From Candidatus Fermentithermobacillaceae bacterium (GTDB taxonomy: Bacteria; Bacillota; Sulfobacillia; Fermentithermobacillales; Fermentithermobacillaceae), in the NCBI GenBank assembly GCA_018052475.1, contig JAGPNG010000005.1, positions 11,355 through 75,354 on the forward strand: a DNA stretch of 64,000 bases, written 5' to 3'. How positions within the stretch are numbered: the first letter of the stretch is position 1; each line of letters starts with the position of its first letter. The notes beneath the pieces were generated by a model. It saw nothing but the letters and a program-made list of their open reading frames with translations, was not told the DNA's origin and searched no databases. This document shows, piece after piece, positions 19,539 to 28,771 of this stretch. The position numbers were made by a program, and so were the translations under genes.

Positions 19539-20999
19539 TCAAAACTCCTGCATAACTTTTAGATATTGTATATACAATGCAAACTCCAGTCTTAGTTTCA
19601 TGATCGAGCACGACAAAGGAACAGGATCAAGGGTGCTTCCCGTAGCCCCAAGTGAACCCGCGTGACAGCCGCCTCCGCATAGATACCTTGCCCAGCAGTC
19701 CATGCATTTCGGCTTGTTGGGCACGCGAGAAAGGAAAAACCTCCTTGCCAGTTCTTCCCTTTTGCCGCTCTCTTCGACTTTGCCTCTACCCCACGGCTCG
19801 TGTATGTAACCCATTGCAAACTCTTCTTGTCCAACCAATTGGTGACACGGGTATATTTCTCCGGTAGGCGTAACCGCCAAATACTCATATCCTGCGCCGC
19901 AGCCTGTGATCCGTCGCTCTTTGCACACTCCATGCGTAAGACCTATCTCAAAGTGATAGAAGTCTAGAGGGTCTTTGCTTCTGTAGCATTCTTCCCAGAA
20001 ATCAGTAAGCCGCAAATACGATTCTTCCAAAGCGGGAAGATCGCTTTCTGAGATAGCCCAATCCGTATCGACTCCTATGGCAGGTTCTAATGATATTTTC
20101 CTAAACCCTATATCATATAGATACTTCACGTCGTTGTAGAAATCCAGGTTGTACTTTGTGTAAGTACCTCTCACGTAGTAGTCGGAACCGCCCCTAGACT
20201 CAACAAGGGAAAGAGCGTTTTTCAATGCGTCATCGTGGCTCGTTCCACCATCTCGATATCTTCTCATCCTGTTGTGAGTCTCGGGTCTGCCGTCAAGGCT
20301 GAGGATGGCACTTATGCGCCACTCATTGAGGAAGTCTATAATGTCTCTGGTCAGAAGGGTGCAGTTGGTAGTGATGGTAAACCGGAATACCTTATCATGC
20401 TTCTTGGCCTTCTCGGCGGCGTAAAGCACAGTCTGTTTTACTGTATCGAAGCATAGAAGCGGTTCTCCGCCGAAAAAGTCTACGTCGAGGTATCGTCTGT
20501 TACCTGATGCATCCACCAGAAAGTCTATGGCTTTTTTGGATGTCTCAGGAGACATTAACATGGGATTTCCCCCAAAACGCCCTTGAGATGCAAAACAGTA
20601 CCGACACACGAGGTTACAGTCATGAGCAACATTAAGGCACATTGCTTTAGGGGTAGGCAGATGTAAAAGCGTATCATCGCTACCGGGTTTTAGCACCCCG
20701 TGTTCCCCGAAGACGTCATCACGTCCCCATATGGTCTTGCCCGACTGTGAGCGTATCTCATCCCAAGCATCCTGTATGTCATTAGGCGAGAATTCCGGAG
20801 ACAGCAAACACACAGCCCTATCCATCTCGGCCCGTTCTTCTTCCGCACTTGAGAATGAAAGAAGATCCAGTTCTTGTTCGATACAATAGTCAACCAGAGC
20901 TCTTCCAACCCGATCAAGTTTCAGCAAAGAACCTGTAGCCGAATCATAGGCAAAATCCGAACCACTAATGCTAAAGACATGGACCTGATTCGGCCTCAT
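19539..20999 (-). CDS. radical SAM/SPASM peptide maturase (SCIFF/ranthipeptide thioether synthase type)
   Basis: CNLVCRYC radical-SAM cluster motif, C-terminal SPASM cysteines (CGAGYEY...CHQ, CMDCWARYLCGGGCHA) and an N-terminal ~110-aa RRE-like extension. The start is proposed at ATG 20999 (MRPNQ), 2 nt after the precursor stop. Confidence 0.85.
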   Translation of the reverse strand: MRPNQVHVFSISGSDFAYDSATGSLLKLDRVGRALVDYCIEQELDLLSFSSAEEERAEMDRAVCLLSPEFSPNDIQDAWDEIRSQSGKTIWGRDDVFGEHGVLKPGSDDTLLHLPTPKAMCLNVAHDCNLVCRYCFASQGRFGGNPMLMSPETSKKAIDFLVDASGNRRYLDVDFFGGEPLLCFDTVKQTVLYAAEKAKKHDKVFRFTITTNCTLLTRDIIDFLNEWRISAILSLDGRPETHNRMRRYRDGGTSHDDALKNALSLVESRGGSDYYVRGTYTKYNLDFYNDVKYLYDIGFRKISLEPAIGVDTDWAISESDLPALEESYLRLTDFWEECYRSKDPLDFYHFEIGLTHGVCKERRITGCGAGYEYLAVTPTGEIYPCHQLVGQEEFAMGYIHEPWGRGKVEESGKREELARRFFLSRVPNKPKCMDCWARYLCGGGCHAGSLGATGSTLDPVPLSCSIMKLRLEFALYIQYLKVMQEF

Positions 21000-21001
21000 G
21001 C

Positions 21002-21157
21002 TTACTTTTCGGGACATGGCTGATTAGAGACAGTACACGAAGTTTTGCACGCCGACTGACAAGAAGCCTGGCATGACTCACAATTAGGAGTTTTCCTACT
21101 CCAATCAGGCACTATAACCGGAACAACGTGATTGCCTTTGCGTATCTTCTTATCCAT
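21002..21157 (-). CDS. SCIFF-family Cys-rich ribosomal peptide precursor (51 aa): MDKKIRKGNHVVPVIVPDWSRKTPNCESCQASCQSACKTSCTVSNQPCPEK
   Basis: Not in the ORF track because it is under 60 aa. GGAGGG SD lies 11 nt upstream. Six Cys match the SCIFF core C.ECQ.SCQSACKTSC...NQ.C. Immediately upstream of the rSAM maturase on the same strand. Confidence 0.8.
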   Translation of the reverse strand: MDKKIRKGNHVVPVIVPDWSRKTPNCESCQASCQSACKTSCTVSNQPCPEK

Positions 21158-21513
21158 ATTCAAAATCCCCCTCCATATTCACGACACTAATTCTACAAGG
21201 AATACACGCCAGCTATCAAGGCGAACAGGTTTTCGCGTGTTCTTCTGCCTGATCTGGCCACAGTTTGATTGAGATAGGAACAGGTATTCCTACTCATAAT
21301 ATCGAATAATTACATACGTTATGGAATCTGCCGTTGATAACAGGATTTGTTTTTGAAAAGTCTGTTTCTTTAATCGCGTTGTTCTATGGTTCGGGCACGA
21401 CGGGAAATATCAAGATTGAAGGTAGGTGGTATAGGGACTCAATTTCTGCAGTGATGCAGCTAACCTCTAGGGATGCAAGACGCACTCAGATTGATAATCA
21501 GGGAGGTGTTTCC

Positions 21514-22290
21514 ATGATAGCCGCCGGAAAACAATTTTCATTTTCGGTTCTAGTTCTGCTCTTCGTTCTGTTCGTCTATTGCATAGACTCATCTAGAAAA
21601 GGCAAAGTGCCGTCTATTAGAAAGCTGCCCGCTCTCGACGCTATTGAAGAAGCCGTAGGCAGGGCCACAGAGATGGGAAGACCGGTTCACTTTAGCCCAG
21701 GTATTGTGGAGTTGACCCATGAACGAGCCCCTCAGACCTTGGCTGGTCTGTCAATCCTTTCTTACGTAGCCGGGCTTTGCGCAAAGTACGATACAGACCT
21801 AATAACCACGATTATGATGCCCGATGTGTACGTTGTCGCCGAAGACGTGGTCAAACAACGATTTCTTGCAGAAGGCAAAGCTAGCCAATACAAACCGGAA
21901 ATGGTCCGGTTCATCGGCGCAGAACAGTTTGCCTACGCTGCAGCCGCAGTCGGAATAATGTACAGGGAACAAGTGGCAGCGAACATAATGATTGGAGCAT
22001 GGTACGCCGAGTCGCTGCTCTTAACCGAAGCTGGAGCCCAAACCGGAGGCATTCAGATTACAGGTTCAGCAACGGTAGCTCAGCTTCCATTCTTGGTCGT
22101 TGCTTCTGACTATTGCTTAATAGGCGAAGAGATATACGCAGCTAGCGCCTATCTTTCTAGGGATCCGGTTGAGCTGGGGGTCATCCTTGGCCAGGATATC
22201 GCGAAAGCCGTGACTATAGGGTTGATGATAGCGGGAGCCTTATTCCTTGCGTTCGGAAACGAGACAATTGTAAATCTCGTTACGATGTAG
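21514..22290 (+). CDS. hypothetical membrane protein (gene 1 of a four-gene cluster)
   Basis: ATG 21514 is preceded by an AGGGAGGTG SD. N-terminal TM helix (FSFSVLVLLFVLFVYC) and C-terminal hydrophobic segments. No recognisable domain. Confidence 0.6.
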   Translation: MIAAGKQFSFSVLVLLFVLFVYCIDSSRKGKVPSIRKLPALDAIEEAVGRATEMGRPVHFSPGIVELTHERAPQTLAGLSILSYVAGLCAKYDTDLITTIMMPDVYVVAEDVVKQRFLAEGKASQYKPEMVRFIGAEQFAYAAAAVGIMYREQVAANIMIGAWYAESLLLTEAGAQTGGIQITGSATVAQLPFLVVASDYCLIGEEIYAASAYLSRDPVELGVILGQDIAKAVTIGLMIAGALFLAFGNETIVNLVTM

Positions 22291-22320
22291 GCCTTTAGAG
22301 CATACGGAGGTGAATTACAA

Positions 22321-22950
22321 TTGAAGGACACGATACCTGTAGCAATAATGACGGTGATCGCTCTTGTAATGATATTGGATTTCTTCATAGGCGACAGTAC
22401 CGCCCTTGATTGGATCAACAACACAGCTGTAATTACCAGGTCATGGGGAATCGTCATTTCTGCGTTTGCGATGGGGCTCGGTGCTATTAACCTATTGCGG
22501 AGGCACTCTAGGTCCATAGTAAGGCGTGATGACAATGCATTTTACAGTTTCCTGCTGGTAGCCTCAATGCTGGTTATGATCGTTCTCGGCGTAGCCTCCG
22601 GCACTGAAAGCCCAGGCTACGACTTTATGTTTTCAAACATCTTGTCTCCGGCCTCAAGCACCATGTATGCGTCAATAGCCTTTTACATCGTGACAGCAGC
22701 TTATAGATCCTTTTCGGCGCGAAACCTAGAAGGATGGCTACTTCTAATCACCGCGGTAATCGTTATGCTTGGCAAAGCCCCTATTGGCAGCGTCATTTCA
22801 GACTTTTTCCCAGTAGCCAGTAACTGGATTGAATCAGTACCGAATACTGCAGGTATGCGCGCTATCATGATGGGAGCTGCTCTAGGAGTCATCTCTAGCG
22901 CAGTTAAGATGTTTCTGGGTCTGGACAAAAGTTATCTGGGACAACGCTAG
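22321..22950 (+). CDS. hypothetical polytopic membrane protein (gene 2)
   Basis: TTG start with a GGAGGTG SD. About 5-6 predicted TM helices. No recognisable domain. Confidence 0.6.
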   Translation: MKDTIPVAIMTVIALVMILDFFIGDSTALDWINNTAVITRSWGIVISAFAMGLGAINLLRRHSRSIVRRDDNAFYSFLLVASMLVMIVLGVASGTESPGYDFMFSNILSPASSTMYASIAFYIVTAAYRSFSARNLEGWLLLITAVIVMLGKAPIGSVISDFFPVASNWIESVPNTAGMRAIMMGAALGVISSAVKMFLGLDKSYLGQR

Positions 22951-22968
22951 GAAAGGAGGAAACGCACA

Positions 22969-23829
22969 GTGGCACAAAAATTGCAGTCGATACCAAAAAC
23001 GTGGATGTATGTACTTCTTTTGGCGGTACTAATCGGTCCTCTTTTGAAGCCGATTGGCATTCCTATAAAGATCAGCGAGGGCACACAGTCTGCTTACGAC
23101 GTAATCGACAGTCTTGAGCCTGGATCGAAAGTAGTCTTTGGATTTGACTACTCTCCAGGCAACGCGGCAGAAATGGAGCCTCAAGCTATTGCAATTCTTA
23201 AGCATCTTCTTTTAAAAGATGTAAAAGTGATTGGTATCTCTTTTCAGGCTCAAGGGCCCATGCTGGCTGTCAAAGCCTTTGAGGCAGCAGGGTGGACCGA
23301 AAAGGAATATGGCACAGACTATGTGAATCTAGGCTACAGAGCCGGAGGTCAAGGAGCAGTGGCAGCATTTGCCTCTGATGTTCCCGGGACGTTTAACACT
23401 GACTATCAGGGAAAGAGCGTTTCGTCCTTTCCCATTATGCAAGGAGTAAAAACTGCAGCCGACGTCGACATGATAATAACTATAGCTCCAGGTACGCCCG
23501 GTCCGGAAGACTATGTGCGACAGGTCTACAGCACCTACAAGACGCCTTTGGTGTGCGGAGTGCCTGCGGTTGCTATTACCCAAGTAGCTCCATATGTTCA
23601 AGCCCAGCAAATCAAAGGTATTCTTGGAGGACTCCCTGGAGCCGCTGAATATGAGCTTCTTATGAATCAACCGGGCAAGGCAGTTGCAGCTATGGACGCA
23701 CAATCCCTGGCTCACCTGCTAATAGTGGCGCTCATCATCTTGCGAAACGCAGCTAATATCTTCAGCAAATCGTCGCCCAAGTCGCAAACTACTGCAAGCG
23801 CTGGTAGCAGCGCAGGAAGGGATGTGTGA
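22969..23829 (+). CDS. hypothetical protein with N-terminal signal/TM anchor, soluble domain and C-terminal TM helix (gene 3)
   Basis: GTG start with an AAGGAGG SD 8 nt upstream. Hydrophobic stretches WMYVLLLAVLIGPLL and LAHLLIVALIIL. Confidence 0.6.
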   Translation: MAQKLQSIPKTWMYVLLLAVLIGPLLKPIGIPIKISEGTQSAYDVIDSLEPGSKVVFGFDYSPGNAAEMEPQAIAILKHLLLKDVKVIGISFQAQGPMLAVKAFEAAGWTEKEYGTDYVNLGYRAGGQGAVAAFASDVPGTFNTDYQGKSVSSFPIMQGVKTAADVDMIITIAPGTPGPEDYVRQVYSTYKTPLVCGVPAVAITQVAPYVQAQQIKGILGGLPGAAEYELLMNQPGKAVAAMDAQSLAHLLIVALIILRNAANIFSKSSPKSQTTASAGSSAGRDV

Positions 23830-23832
23830 TAT

Positions 23833-24423
23833 ATGAGTCTCAACTTTGGCACATGGGTAGCGGGGTTGATTACCATCGCCATAATGAGTCTTGTGTGGAA
23901 AGAAAACCCCTTCTATCGGTCTGCCGAACACCTTTATGTTGGAGTAAGTGCGGGTCATGCTGTGGTTATGGCCTATAACAACATAAAAGACATGGCATTT
24001 CAACCGCTCGCTGCAGGGCAGTTTGTCTGGATTATCCCAATAATACTGGGCATTCTCCTTTATGCAAGATACACAAAACAGGCCTGGCTTGCCAGATATC
24101 CTGTATCGGTAATAGTAGGCATAGGTACAGGGGTTGCGGTGCGCGGGGCAATTCATGGAGACTTTACTCAGCAGGTCGCAGCGACCATGAAAGTCGGCAG
24201 CGCGAACGAGATACTCTTGCTGGTCTTCGTGGTGATGTCTTTGAGTTATTTCTTTTTCTCAAGAGAATTTCAAGGGCCGATTAGCATCATCCCGAAAGCA
24301 GGTAGATTGGTTTTGATGGTAGCCTTTGGCGCCGCCTTTGGCACAACCGTAATGGGTAGAATGGCACTGCTCATAGGACGAATTCAATTTGTACTCGGCG
24401 ATTGGTTAGGTATACTCAGATAG
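23833..24423 (+). CDS. hypothetical polytopic membrane protein (gene 4)
   Basis: GGAAGGGA SD and ATG 4 nt after the gene-3 stop. About 5 TM helices. Confidence 0.6.
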   Translation: MSLNFGTWVAGLITIAIMSLVWKENPFYRSAEHLYVGVSAGHAVVMAYNNIKDMAFQPLAAGQFVWIIPIILGILLYARYTKQAWLARYPVSVIVGIGTGVAVRGAIHGDFTQQVAATMKVGSANEILLLVFVVMSLSYFFFSREFQGPISIIPKAGRLVLMVAFGAAFGTTVMGRMALLIGRIQFVLGDWLGILR

Positions 24424-24429
24424 CAAAAA

Positions 24430-24465
24430 GGGGAGCACACGATTAGATCTTGTGCTCCCCCTTTC
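24430..24465. terminator. bidirectional rho-independent terminator (9-bp stem ggggagcac/gtgctcccc)
   Basis: caaaaaggggagcacacgattagatcttgtgctcccccTTTCTTT lies between the convergent gene 4 (+) and recR (-). Confidence 0.75.
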
Positions 24466-24509
24466 TTTGGTTCAAACGAAGTGAAACCGGACACCCTTAT
24501 CTAGGGCTT

Positions 24510-27233: not shown

Positions 27234-27503
27234 TACAAAAATTGGCCGTGCACTTATCTCCGAACGTCCTCCCCAGGCGGTACCGGCGTAGCCGGCTCCA
27301 GTCAGGAATCCCTGCGGCACATGAGAAAATCCGCTTACCGCTGCTTCCTCCCGGACCTGACGGGGTTCACGGGCTCTCATTGCGCAGGACCCAACCTTCA
27401 ACGCTACCCGCGCCAGCCAGACCCTAAAGAGGAGCGCCCTCGGATAAGCTTCAACCCCGCTATAGCGGATTGCGGGTTACAGGGCACCGCTATCTCCCCG
27501 TCT
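27234..27503 (-). ncRNA. ffs: signal recognition particle RNA, long Bacillus-type (scRNA/ffs, ~270 nt, with Alu domain)
   Basis: The minus-strand sequence contains the domain IV motif GTCAGGTCCGGGAGGAAGCAGCGG and the Alu-domain motif GCGGTGCCCTGTAACCCGCAATCCGCT. Its 5' GGCCGTGC pairs with its 3' GCACGGCC. It sits immediately upstream of dnaX, as scr does in B. subtilis. Confidence 0.85.
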
Positions 27504-27551
27504 AGCACGGCCAAACTTCAAACCCAAAGCGAGTTTCAAAAGACACTGATA

Positions 27552-27641
27552 TGGCGGAGGGAGTGGGATTTGAACCCACGAGACGCTTACGCGTCTACAC
27601 GCTCTCCAGGCGTGCTCCTTCAGCCGCTCGGACATCCCTCC
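27552..27641 (-). tRNA. tRNA-Ser (anticodon GGA)
   Basis: Cloverleaf with long variable arm, anticodon loop CTGGAGA, T-loop GGTTCAAATCC and 3' CCA encoded. Confidence 0.85.
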
Positions 27642-27679
27642 ATGTACACATGAACCTCGCCTTATTATACCAACTGCTC

Positions 27680-27769
27680 TGGCGGAGGGGGTGGGATTCG
27701 AACCCACGAGGCGCTCACACGCCTACCCGCTTTCGAGGCGGGCTCGTTCAACCGCTCCGACACCCCTCC
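27680..27769 (-). tRNA. tRNA-Ser (anticodon CGA)
   Basis: Anticodon stem-loop cccgc-CTCGAAA-gcggg, long variable arm and GGTTCGAATCC T-loop. CCA encoded. Confidence 0.85.
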
Positions 27770-27786
27770 CCTTAAGGAGTGGACAG

Positions 27787-28218
27787 CTAAAACCTAAGGC
27801 CGCGAAAAAACGACTCTAGGAGTTCTCGACACTCTCTTTCCATCACACCGAACTTTATCTCAACTTGGTGGTTTAGTCTCGGATCCGAGACTATGTTCCA
27901 CAAAGAGCCGCAAGCCCCTGTTTTAGGATCTTTAGTCCCTATAACCAATCTGGGGATCCTCGCCATAACGATGGCGCCTGCGCACATGGGACACGGCTCC
28001 AATGTAACGTACATAGTAGACTCCAATACTCGCCAACCTGTAACGTTCCGCGCAGCTTCGCGTATGGCCATCATTTCAGCATGTGCTGTCGGATCGCCCA
28101 ACGTCTCCTTCAGATTGTGCCCTCTGCCTACAACCGTGCCTTCTTTTAGGATTACTGCGCCAACCGGCACCTCGCCTAGGCAATACGCTTTGCGGGCTTC
28201 AACAAGGGCCATCTCCAT
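27787..28218 (-). CDS. tadA: tRNA-specific adenosine deaminase (the ORF could extend to 28293)
   Basis: CDA zinc motifs HAEMMAI and PCPMCAGAI. It lies next to tRNA-Arg(ACG), its substrate. Confidence 0.88.
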   Translation of the reverse strand: MEMALVEARKAYCLGEVPVGAVILKEGTVVGRGHNLKETLGDPTAHAEMMAIREAARNVTGWRVLESTMYVTLEPCPMCAGAIVMARIPRLVIGTKDPKTGACGSLWNIVSDPRLNHQVEIKFGVMERECRELLESFFRGLRF

Positions 28219-28297
28219 CCCGTAGAGATCGTAGCAATCTGCCCTCGAAAATTCGTCCAACTCGATAAACCACCATTCAAACCCGTCTATCAAAATC

Positions 28298-28376
28298 TGG
28301 TGCGCCCGGGAGGACTCGAACCTCCGGCTGACGGGGATTAGGAATCCCCCGCTCTGTCCACCTGAGCTACGGGCGC
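28298..28376 (-). tRNA. tRNA-Arg (anticodon CCT)
   Basis: Anticodon loop TTCCTAA in a gggga/tcccc stem, GTTCGAGTCC T-loop. CCA encoded. Confidence 0.85.
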
Positions 28377-28427
28377 ATCGTCAGAAACCTATAATCACCA
28401 GTGTGTCTTCCCACCACCGAAAACAAG

Positions 28428-28504
28428 TGGTGCGCCTGGCGGGATTTGAACCCACAACCTACAGATCCGTAGTCTGTCGCTCTATCCAATTGAGCTACAG
28501 GCGC
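28428..28504 (-). tRNA. tRNA-Arg (anticodon ACG)
   Basis: 77 nt. D-arm GCTCAATTGGATAGAGC, anticodon loop CTACGGA, T-loop GGTTCAAATCC. CCA encoded. Confidence 0.9.
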
Positions 28505-28534
28505 GAGATAAAATCCGTGGCGTTGGTCCTTAGG

Positions 28535-28624
28535 TGGCGGAGAGGGAGGGATTCGAACCCTCGAAGGGGGTTACCCCTTAACGGTTTAGCAAACCGTCGC
28601 CCTCGGCCTCTAGGCGACCTCTCC
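28535..28624 (-). tRNA. tRNA-Ser (anticodon GCT)
   Basis: Anticodon stem-loop acggt-TTGCTAA-accgt, long variable arm. CCA encoded. Confidence 0.85.
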
Positions 28625-28680
28625 GCAGAATAAAGGGCCTCGCCCTTTAGATATTATCACGTCTTCCTATGGGATGCTAG

Positions 28681-28771
28681 TGGCGGAGGGGGTGGGATTC
28701 GAACCCACGGAGGGCTATGAACCCTCAACGGTTTTCAAGACCGCCGCATTCAACCGCTCTGCCACCCCTCC
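28681..28771 (-). tRNA. tRNA-Ser (anticodon TGA)
   Basis: Anticodon loop CTTGAAA, long variable arm, GGTTCGAATCC T-loop. CCA encoded. Confidence 0.85.

Follow-up and report, generated by a model that had tools for sequence, protein, structure and literature searches.

Type I ATP-binding cassette (ABC) importers combine four parts in a familiar layout: an outer alpha/beta domain, which is anchored in the membrane in Gram-positive bacteria and archaea, two membrane subunits of about six transmembrane (TM) helices, and a cytoplasmic alpha/beta domain that is the most conserved part, all encoded in one tight operon that may occur in paralogous tandem copies. In such binding-protein-dependent importers, conservation usually decreases in the order nucleotide-binding domain, TM domain, and substrate-binding protein (SBP). 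All of these features of layout recur in a cassette of four genes, here called g1 to g4, at positions 21514-24423 of a 64,000-nucleotide stretch of contig JAGPNG010000005.1 from a Candidatus Fermentithermobacillaceae bacterium (henceforth the window). The likeness nevertheless appears to be one of layout only. The cassette shows neither an ABC signature nor an SBP match, and it has no sequence or fold homology to these importers. A P-loop or Walker A motif ([AG]xxxxGK[ST]) occurs in none of the four proteins, there is no ABC_tran match and no ATPase gene in the operon, and no consistent BPD_transp or ABC-2 permease match was obtained with 29 g2 and 19 g4 homologs even at E <= 1. Furthermore, the g1 protein is itself anchored by two TM helices, unlike the cytoplasmic domain of the ABC importers.

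Other described systems come close on different points. The tripartite ATP-independent periplasmic (TRAP) and tripartite tricarboxylate transporters (TTT) also have a core that is independent of ATP, a binding component outside the cytoplasm, and at least two membrane subunits, and they too occur in both bacteria and archaea. However, no subunit of the cassette matched DctP/DctQ/DctM or TctA/TctB/TctC in Pfam or NCBIfam, and TRAP and TTT systems lack a conserved cytoplasmic domain subunit and have 4 + 12 TM helices, compared with 6 + 6 + 2 + 2 in the cassette. Likewise, g2 and g4 resemble the S components of energy-coupling factor (ECF) transporters in size and TM number (~190 amino acids and 6 TM helices), and the conserved Arg residues in their predicted cytoplasmic loops recall the coupling helices of EcfT, whereas matches to EcfA ATPases, EcfT, or S components are absent and an external binding domain is foreign to ECF transporters. 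The topology that we take to typify GldG and ABC_transp_aux proteins, with an alpha/beta ectodomain between N- and C-terminal TM helices, resembles g3 and, inverted, g1; we regard it as a lead only, given that there is no Pfam match at E <= 1 and no associated ABC-2 permease or ATPase. We know of no characterized system in which two oppositely oriented subunits, each a domain between two TM helices, flank two 6-TM subunits. Since homology is missing for all four subunits, we rate the cassette as outside every known kind; structural comparison of g3, g4, and the assembled complex could link it to a known superfamily.

The original prediction held that none of the four products could be assigned to a characterized family, and this is borne out by profile searches. 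Only g1 could be placed, in Pfam family DUF6754, which covers g1 alone and has no assigned function, while its three obligate partners lack a Pfam model. For g2, g3, and g4 there was no match above noise in Pfam, NCBIfam, or PADLOC, and none of the four proteins matched the Protein Data Bank (PDB) by sequence or by profile. Recurrent weak Pfam matches among 40 g3, 29 g2, and 19 g4 homologs did not converge on a consistent family.

What defines the cassette is its conservation as a unit. A scan of the genome collection with a g1 profile gave at least 584 confirmed loci, the best-scoring 80 of which were kept; six-frame open reading frames (ORFs) of these loci were searched with the four window proteins and then with hidden Markov models built from the matches. 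Gene calls in the compared loci are crude, being either stop-to-stop or longest-ORF. The order and orientation g1-g2-g3-g4 is kept in 82 of 96 g1 occurrences and, as 8 more are cut by contig ends, in 82 of the 88 that can be evaluated. The six exceptions are four lone long-form g1 genes, one g1 duplication ahead of a full cassette, and one partial second copy. The closest relative (L001) is 96% identical, and the bacterial carriers extend from Bacillota (including Symbiobacterium, Alkalicella, and Anaerobranca) to Zixibacteria, Eisenbacteria, Ignavibacteria, WOR-3, Stahlbacteria, Planctomycetota, Myxococcia, and Nitrospira. Archaeal carriers belong to Bathyarchaeia, Methanomethylicia, Nitrososphaerota, and Culexmicrobium. 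Spacing is tight throughout: the median gaps are 13, 11, and 0 nucleotides, and 26 of 54 loci show an overlap between g3 and g4. The four genes thus form one operon. Because the products are passed on together as an unvarying set in bacteria and archaea alike, they are, judging from the sequences, almost certainly subunits of one hetero-oligomeric cytoplasmic-membrane complex. A dedicated complex of uncharacterized membrane proteins had been suggested from the window alone, together with the proviso that the cluster might prove not to be conserved in related genomes; the fixed gene order supports the former, and the latter outcome did not occur. That four unrelated hypothetical genes, or over-called ORFs, are adjacent by chance has only the absence of annotation in its favor and is refuted by the hundreds to thousands of homologs of each ORF and by their invariant arrangement, so that we give it next to no weight.

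The subunits are conserved to different degrees. Mean pairwise identity across 47 single-copy loci is 48% for g1, 39% for g4, 38% for g2, and 36% for g3, making g1 the most and g3 the least conserved subunit; when only the soluble domains are considered, the values are 55% for the g1 domain and 35% for the g3 ectodomain. Nine loci carry two (L012, L023, L035, L041, and L076) or three (L022, L031, L052, and L066) complete cassettes, in tandem except in L023, where they are convergent. In the triplicated arrays of Zixibacteria and Ignavibacteria, two of the three g1 paralogs have a signal peptide and a module resembling fibronectin type III (FN3) before the first TM helix (TM1), and each of the three paralog types recurs across phyla, implying that the triplication is old. 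Departures from the canonical form were also seen. A three-gene variant, in which a PPC-domain protein is followed by g2 and then by a g3 of 450-474 amino acids with fused N-terminal double zinc ribbons, is present at L083 (5576-9362) and L084 (51-2866); since neither locus has a recognizable g1 or g4, g2 and g3 can apparently pair with other partners. An ignavibacterial locus (L025, 8363-10744) has ~2.3 kb with three ORFs (433, 194, and 115 amino acids) inserted so as to separate g2 from g3, the cassette being canonical in all other respects. The lone long-form g1 genes (L016, L040, L058, and L074) have no g2-g4 detectable within 4-7 kb downstream.

The g1 gene (21514-22290, + strand; this and the following gene coordinates are from the ORF list and the sequence) starts with ATG and encodes a protein of 258 amino acids that matches DUF6754 (PF20539) over its full length (E = 2.9e-82; 276.1 bits against a cut-off of 27), residues 7-254 aligning to profile positions 10-255 of 257. 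Its homologs form more than 6,145 clusters at 90% identity. Two TM helices, one N-terminal (8-26) and one C-terminal (229-247), enclose an alpha/beta domain (~30-225). AlphaFold2 modeled the protein with confidence (pLDDT, 91.8; pTM, 0.86): a TM helix (7-28) leads into an alpha/beta domain of six strands, and the second TM segment is part of a long C-terminal helix. The original prediction had reserved a C-terminal TM helix for gene 3; it is indeed present there, but g1 has one as well. Signature motifs of g1 are GRATEMGRP, AES..L.E.G, and DYxLIGEE, and the domain contains 25 invariant positions among 45 sequences, many of them acidic (E46, E53, E172, D199, E205, E206, and D228). No His or Cys is conserved: among 95 homologs, H59 is kept in 35%, C201 in 14%, and C89 in 22%. 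A basic cluster, SRKGKVPSIRK, follows TM1. Long paralogs in diderm lineages have a signal-peptide-like segment and ~100 extra residues before TM1, and although no Pfam domain was detected in this extension, its best PDB matches are all FN3 domains (titin, 7e-4; "Fn3-like protein," 1.6e-3; Robo3, 6e-3). On the basis of the basic cluster and of the signal peptide and FN3-like module of the long paralogs, we infer that the N terminus of g1 is outside and that the DUF6754 domain is cytoplasmic.

The g3 gene (22969-23829, + strand) starts with GTG and encodes 286 amino acids in a similar plan: a TM helix (15-33), an alpha/beta domain (~36-235) with the conserved motif GAAEYE...MDAQS.H at its end, a second TM helix near the C terminus (239-257), and a low-complexity tail of basic character. 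H249 is conserved in 95% of homologs. The g3 profile retrieved 5,484 representatives at 50% identity clustering, 4,481 of them at E <= 1e-10. In g3 the orientation would be the reverse of that in g1, with the N terminus inside, the alpha/beta domain external, and the C-terminal tail cytoplasmic. The external placement of the domain is argued for by the basic residues that flank the TM segments, before TM1 and in the tail after the last one, by the N-terminal zinc ribbons of some homologs, which are of cytoplasmic type, and by insertions and duplications inside the domain. One homolog of 838 amino acids (P0353) has a ~550-amino-acid insertion of repeated ~110-amino-acid units within the ectodomain, which look Ig-like or CARDB-like by eye only and have no PDB match, and in another of 630 amino acids (P0295) the whole ectodomain is duplicated in tandem. 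No subunit fusions were found among the top hits, the long g3 hits representing such insertions or duplications and not fusions to g1, g2, or g4.

The remaining two genes encode polytopic proteins. The g2 gene (22321-22950, + strand) starts with TTG and encodes 209 amino acids with five strong hydrophobic segments and one weaker one, which we read as six TM helices; the positive-inside rule predicts an N-in/C-in topology. Three Arg residues are conserved, Arg129 and Arg134 in a predicted cytoplasmic loop and Arg180 where TM6 begins, and g2 homologs form 57 clusters. The g4 gene (23833-24423, + strand) starts with ATG and encodes 196 amino acids with three strong and about three weaker hydrophobic segments (~6 in all), the invariant residues Asn25, Glu32, Trp85, Arg88, and Arg176, a Gly-rich segment, FGAxFGxTVMxR, and an H33 that is conserved in 82% of homologs. 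Two polytopic proteins of 5-6 TM helices each had been proposed. Residues 34-83 and 93-145 of g4 (TM2-3 and TM4-5) align with an hhalign probability of 39% (P = 3e-4), a nonsignificant hint of an internal repeat. Paralogy between g1 and g3 and between g2 and g4 was considered and rejected, as all hhalign probabilities were below 2%, and the four families are mutually unrelated at a detectable level.

Taken together, these features describe what would be a complex of ~16 TM helices with a variable external domain contributed by g3 and a highly conserved internal domain contributed by g1. Our preferred interpretation, which we put forward tentatively, is that this complex may be a binding-domain-dependent solute importer of a new type, most plausibly moving a small nutrient across the membrane. 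The argument for transport is the layout itself, an outside domain and an inside domain around two ~6-TM subunits, together with the fall in conservation from the inside domain (55%) over the TM subunits (38-39%) to the outside domain (35%). Nutrient uptake in particular is suggested by paralogy of the whole cassette in nine loci, which is common for nutrient transporters, and by the recurrence nearby of peptidases or amidohydrolases and TonB-dependent receptors. Amide-bond hydrolases occur in 16 of 83 loci (M20 in 10, Amidohydro_1/3 in 9, amidase in 2, and MlrC in 2). They adjoin the cassette as three genes in tandem after g4 (L032), as one gene after g4 (L024), or as one gene beside it (L003 and L004), and at L012 one lies between two cassettes; the TonB-dependent receptor is downstream of the cassette in four Eisenbacteria loci. 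In such an importer, g2 and g4 would form the membrane core and the translocation path. The g3 domain, tethered at each end by a TM helix, would capture a small organic substrate on the outer face, candidates for which are small peptides, N-acyl amino acids, and other amide-containing nitrogen compounds, the leading although weakly supported possibilities. On the cytoplasmic face, the acidic conserved domain of g1 would gate or couple transport from inside, probably by docking on the conserved Arg-bearing cytoplasmic loops of g2 and g4. Since no ATPase belongs to the core, the version with just the four genes that the window carries would run on an ion gradient.

Redox or PTS chemistry is argued against by the lack of a conserved Cys or His in g1 and of a P-loop in any subunit. 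There is no Rnf, Nqr, Nuo, or cytochrome match and no conserved Cys in any subunit, and the only well-conserved His residues of the cassette are H249 of g3 and H33 of g4. A lone weak DsbD_TM match (E = 0.011) was not reproduced in homologs. Likewise, there is no match to a sporulation family, and the occurrence of the cassette in diderm phyla such as Zixibacteria, Eisenbacteria, Ignavibacteria, and Nitrospira, as well as in archaea, makes a role in sporulation unlikely. A mobile or defense element was rejected, with none of the four proteins matching a PADLOC family of anti-phage systems and the cassette being absent from plasmid and phage collections.

Several observations weigh against an importer. 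The four proteins appear from their sequences to have no homology to any transporter family. The confident g1 model gave nothing significant against the PDB with Foldseek (best E = 8e-3; TM score, <= 0.38), while the AlphaFold2 model of g2 is poor (pLDDT, 67.5) and its Foldseek matches are noise. At 55% identity across domains of life, the g1 domain is unusually conserved for a gating module and could be an enzyme. The association with amide hydrolases covers ~19% of loci, counted without a formal background control, and the subfamilies are generic (PRK09061-like, Xaa-Pro-dipeptidase-like, and SsnA) and below equivalog cut-offs. Neither in the window nor at 20 other loci is the cassette preceded by a riboswitch or another Rfam element. 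Finally, the HPr-PtsI-PGI/PMI, sugar-1-phosphate nucleotidyltransferase, and Wzi-like neighbors discussed below point elsewhere.

Clustering of all flanking ORFs of the loci, with annotation of the recurrent clusters, did not reveal a fifth universal partner but gave four associations specific to certain lineages: the amide-bond hydrolases, the outer-membrane proteins, the PTS and sugar-nucleotide array described below, and a module of two or three genes built around an ASKHA protein. This module is co-oriented with the cassette and directly upstream or downstream of it in 19 of 80 loci, which belong to Bacillota, Eisenbacteria, Planctomycetota, and one metagenome-assembled genome (MAG) labelled Desulfuromonadaceae; it is missing from the window. 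The module comprises c5, c6, and usually c7 (e.g., L015, 10070-14443; L081, 7678-7974 and 11003-13944). The c5 protein (~610 amino acids) belongs to the GlmL/MutL family (PF13941; Pfam E = 1e-124) but with 219 bits falls well short of the equivalog cut-offs for GlmL and Or-4 (475 bits) and has an extra C-terminal domain of ~130 amino acids. Neither c6 (~375 amino acids), the N terminus of which looks like a barrel-sandwich or lipoyl-type domain, nor c7 (~100-200 amino acids) falls in a family. In Bacillota, these loci often carry, upstream, another c5-like gene of shorter length as well as a 2-TM protein (c18), and the lone g1 of L074 is preceded by a 528-amino-acid protein that contains a c7 domain. 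GlmL/MutL proteins are known as accessory proteins of B12-dependent mutases; c5 is of the same ASKHA family but is paired with two unassigned proteins and a membrane cassette, not with a mutase. Searches of the literature for DUF6754, PF13941, and GlmL in combination with membrane operons yielded nothing of relevance. If the cassette is an importer, c5 and its two partners might, where present, process the imported substrate or assist the complex. A bolder version of the importer proposal would see a new multi-subunit transporter class of many bacterial phyla and TACK archaea, in which an outer binding domain and an inner, highly conserved non-P-loop alpha/beta domain, each tethered by two TM helices, surround two ~6-TM subunits and in which, in some lineages, an ASKHA-fold ATPase replaces the ABC or P-loop motor; we consider this broader claim somewhat less probable than the importer itself.

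A different picture emerges from nine loci of the Zixibacteria/Ignavibacteria type, in which the cassette is part of the array Obg-DprA-HPr-PtsI-PGI/PMI-[g1-g4]-(lipoprotein)-sugar-1-P nucleotidyltransferase-MetK-AhcY, with the PGI/PMI (c9) stop abutting or overlapping the g1 start. Being co-operonic with PGI/PMI and a sugar-1-phosphate nucleotidyltransferase, the cassette might encode an envelope-biogenesis or export machine that moves or modifies a glycan, a lipid-linked intermediate, or a surface polymer, with g3 on the outside and g1 as a cytoplasmic, possibly acidic metal-dependent enzyme. Such a machine would also fit the Wzi-like outer-membrane protein downstream of the cassette in WOR-3 loci, the FN3-like and repeat modules on the outer side, and the very conserved g1 domain with its invariant Glu and Asp residues clustered as in an active site. 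Furthermore, the top, nonsignificant Foldseek neighbor of g1, among neighbors that are all generic Rossmann-like folds, is a phosphosugar-binding SIS domain. On the other hand, the cassette is common to monoderm Bacillota, diderm phyla, and archaea, the envelopes of which are fundamentally different; the synteny includes Obg, DprA, MetK, and AhcY and may thus reflect common descent and not function; no glycosyltransferase, flippase, or polymerase family was matched; and envelope genes are not linked to the cassette in the window or in most loci. We therefore regard an envelope machine as unlikely, though it is the most serious competitor of the importer.

The same array places HPr and PtsI of the phosphotransferase system (PTS) immediately upstream of the cassette, and PTS operons of the mannose class are typically accompanied by PMI. 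Conceivably, the tight succession HPr-PtsI-PGI/PMI-g1-g2-g3-g4 could encode an unconventional group translocator, a new Enzyme II fed by HPr and Enzyme I. However, H59 of g1 is replaced by F, L, or Y precisely in the PTS-linked lineages, no EIIA, EIIB, EIIC, or EIID family was matched, and archaeal and Bacillota cassettes commonly have no PTS genes nearby. For want of conserved phospho-acceptor residues we reject this interpretation, which strikes us as very improbable. Possibly, HPr/Enzyme I or the ASKHA protein could instead receive a signal from the complex, if g3 were to sense an external cue and g1 to relay it. A transmembrane sensor or regulator of this kind would be consistent with the pairing of a variable outside domain with a conserved inside domain, with the HPr and PtsI genes of the nine loci, with Ser/Thr kinases among the co-directional neighbors at two loci, and with the zinc-ribbon fusions on g3. 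It would leave two dedicated ~6-TM subunits and some 16 TM helices hard to account for, no kinase, GGDEF, HTH, or receiver output domain was recognized, g1 again offers no conserved phospho-acceptor, and most loci have no regulator nearby; we judge it quite improbable, if less so than the PTS translocator. The probability that is left goes to an explanation beyond those considered here.

In the window, the coordinates of the four + strand genes and the intergenic gaps of 30 (g1-g2), 18 (g2-g3), and 3 (g3-g4) nucleotides are exactly as first reported. A strong Shine-Dalgarno sequence of its own had also been ascribed to each gene; one precedes each, AGGGAGG for g1 (21500-21506), GGAGGTG for g2 (22306-22312), and AAAGGAGG for g3 (22952-22959), but that of g4, AGGAAGGGA (23814-23822), is weaker and lies within the 3' end of g3. 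A deposited Candidatus Fermentithermobacillaceae MAG contains proteins identical to g1-g4 (258, 209, 286, and 196 amino acids) at the consecutive loci KBI39_02705-02720, each under the name "hypothetical protein"; their identical lengths and the conservation of the N termini in homologs make the TTG and GTG starts credible. Upstream of its ATG, the g1 frame stays open as far as a TTG at 21334, which some public gene calls use (318- or 282-amino-acid versions). We consider these calls over-extended, because the ATG at 21514 is preceded by AGGGAGG and most homologs have 257-265 amino acids.

The postulated shared terminator after g4 is real: RNA folding places an intrinsic terminator at 24430-24468 (+ strand), between g4 and the convergent recR, with a 10-bp G+C-rich stem (24430-24439/24452-24461) ahead of the run TTTCTTT. 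Its folding energy is -21.6 kcal/mol (z = -3.87 relative to shuffles, 1 of 200 of which folds equally well), and a simple scanner overlooked it because its loop is long. At the other end, the 5' intergenic leader (21164-21513, + strand) is shared divergently with the SCIFF gene and has no Rfam family at E <= 1; a consensus scan for a promoter of the cassette gave only weak matches (9 found versus 4.9 expected). A TPP riboswitch at one of the other loci (L014) is part of another operon.

The flanking genes, too, are those originally named: the SCIFF peptide (TIGR03973) and its maturase (TIGR03974) upstream on the - strand and recR and ybaB downstream. The SCIFF locus (19539-21163, - strand), divergent from g1, is complete, with a six-cysteine ranthipeptide precursor (TIGR03973, 52 bits; cut-off, 50) and a radical-SAM/SPASM maturase (TIGR03974, 449 bits). 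A functional link of the cassette to SCIFF or recR was rejected; this neighborhood is shared only with the closest relative, L001, and is incidental, since L002-L004 have the cassette in other contexts. Further downstream, the window carries a large bacterial signal recognition particle RNA (27246-27510, - strand; 208 bits) and then six tRNA genes (Ser-GGA, Ser-CGA, Arg-CCT, Arg-ACG, Ser-GCT, and Ser-TGA; total span, 27246-28771), with which a tadA-like deaminase ORF (27787-28293) is interleaved.

In summary, the cassette is large in number, with more than 6,000 g1 clusters at 90% identity and ~5,500 g3 representatives at 50%, and phylogenetically broad, and it adds three families that are new to Pfam to a fourth that is a domain of unknown function. 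Its absence from the classic model organisms is probably why it has been overlooked. It is directly testable by way of its signature motifs, its constant gene order, and the ASKHA module that accompanies it in some lineages. Should it prove to be an envelope or signaling machine common to bacteria and archaea, it would be at least equally interesting. As a transporter, on the other hand, it would enlarge the small set of known transport machineries by a new architecture and would help to account for nutrient uptake in poorly understood anaerobic, peptide-degrading lineages such as Zixibacteria, Eisenbacteria, Bathyarchaeia, and digester Bacillota.

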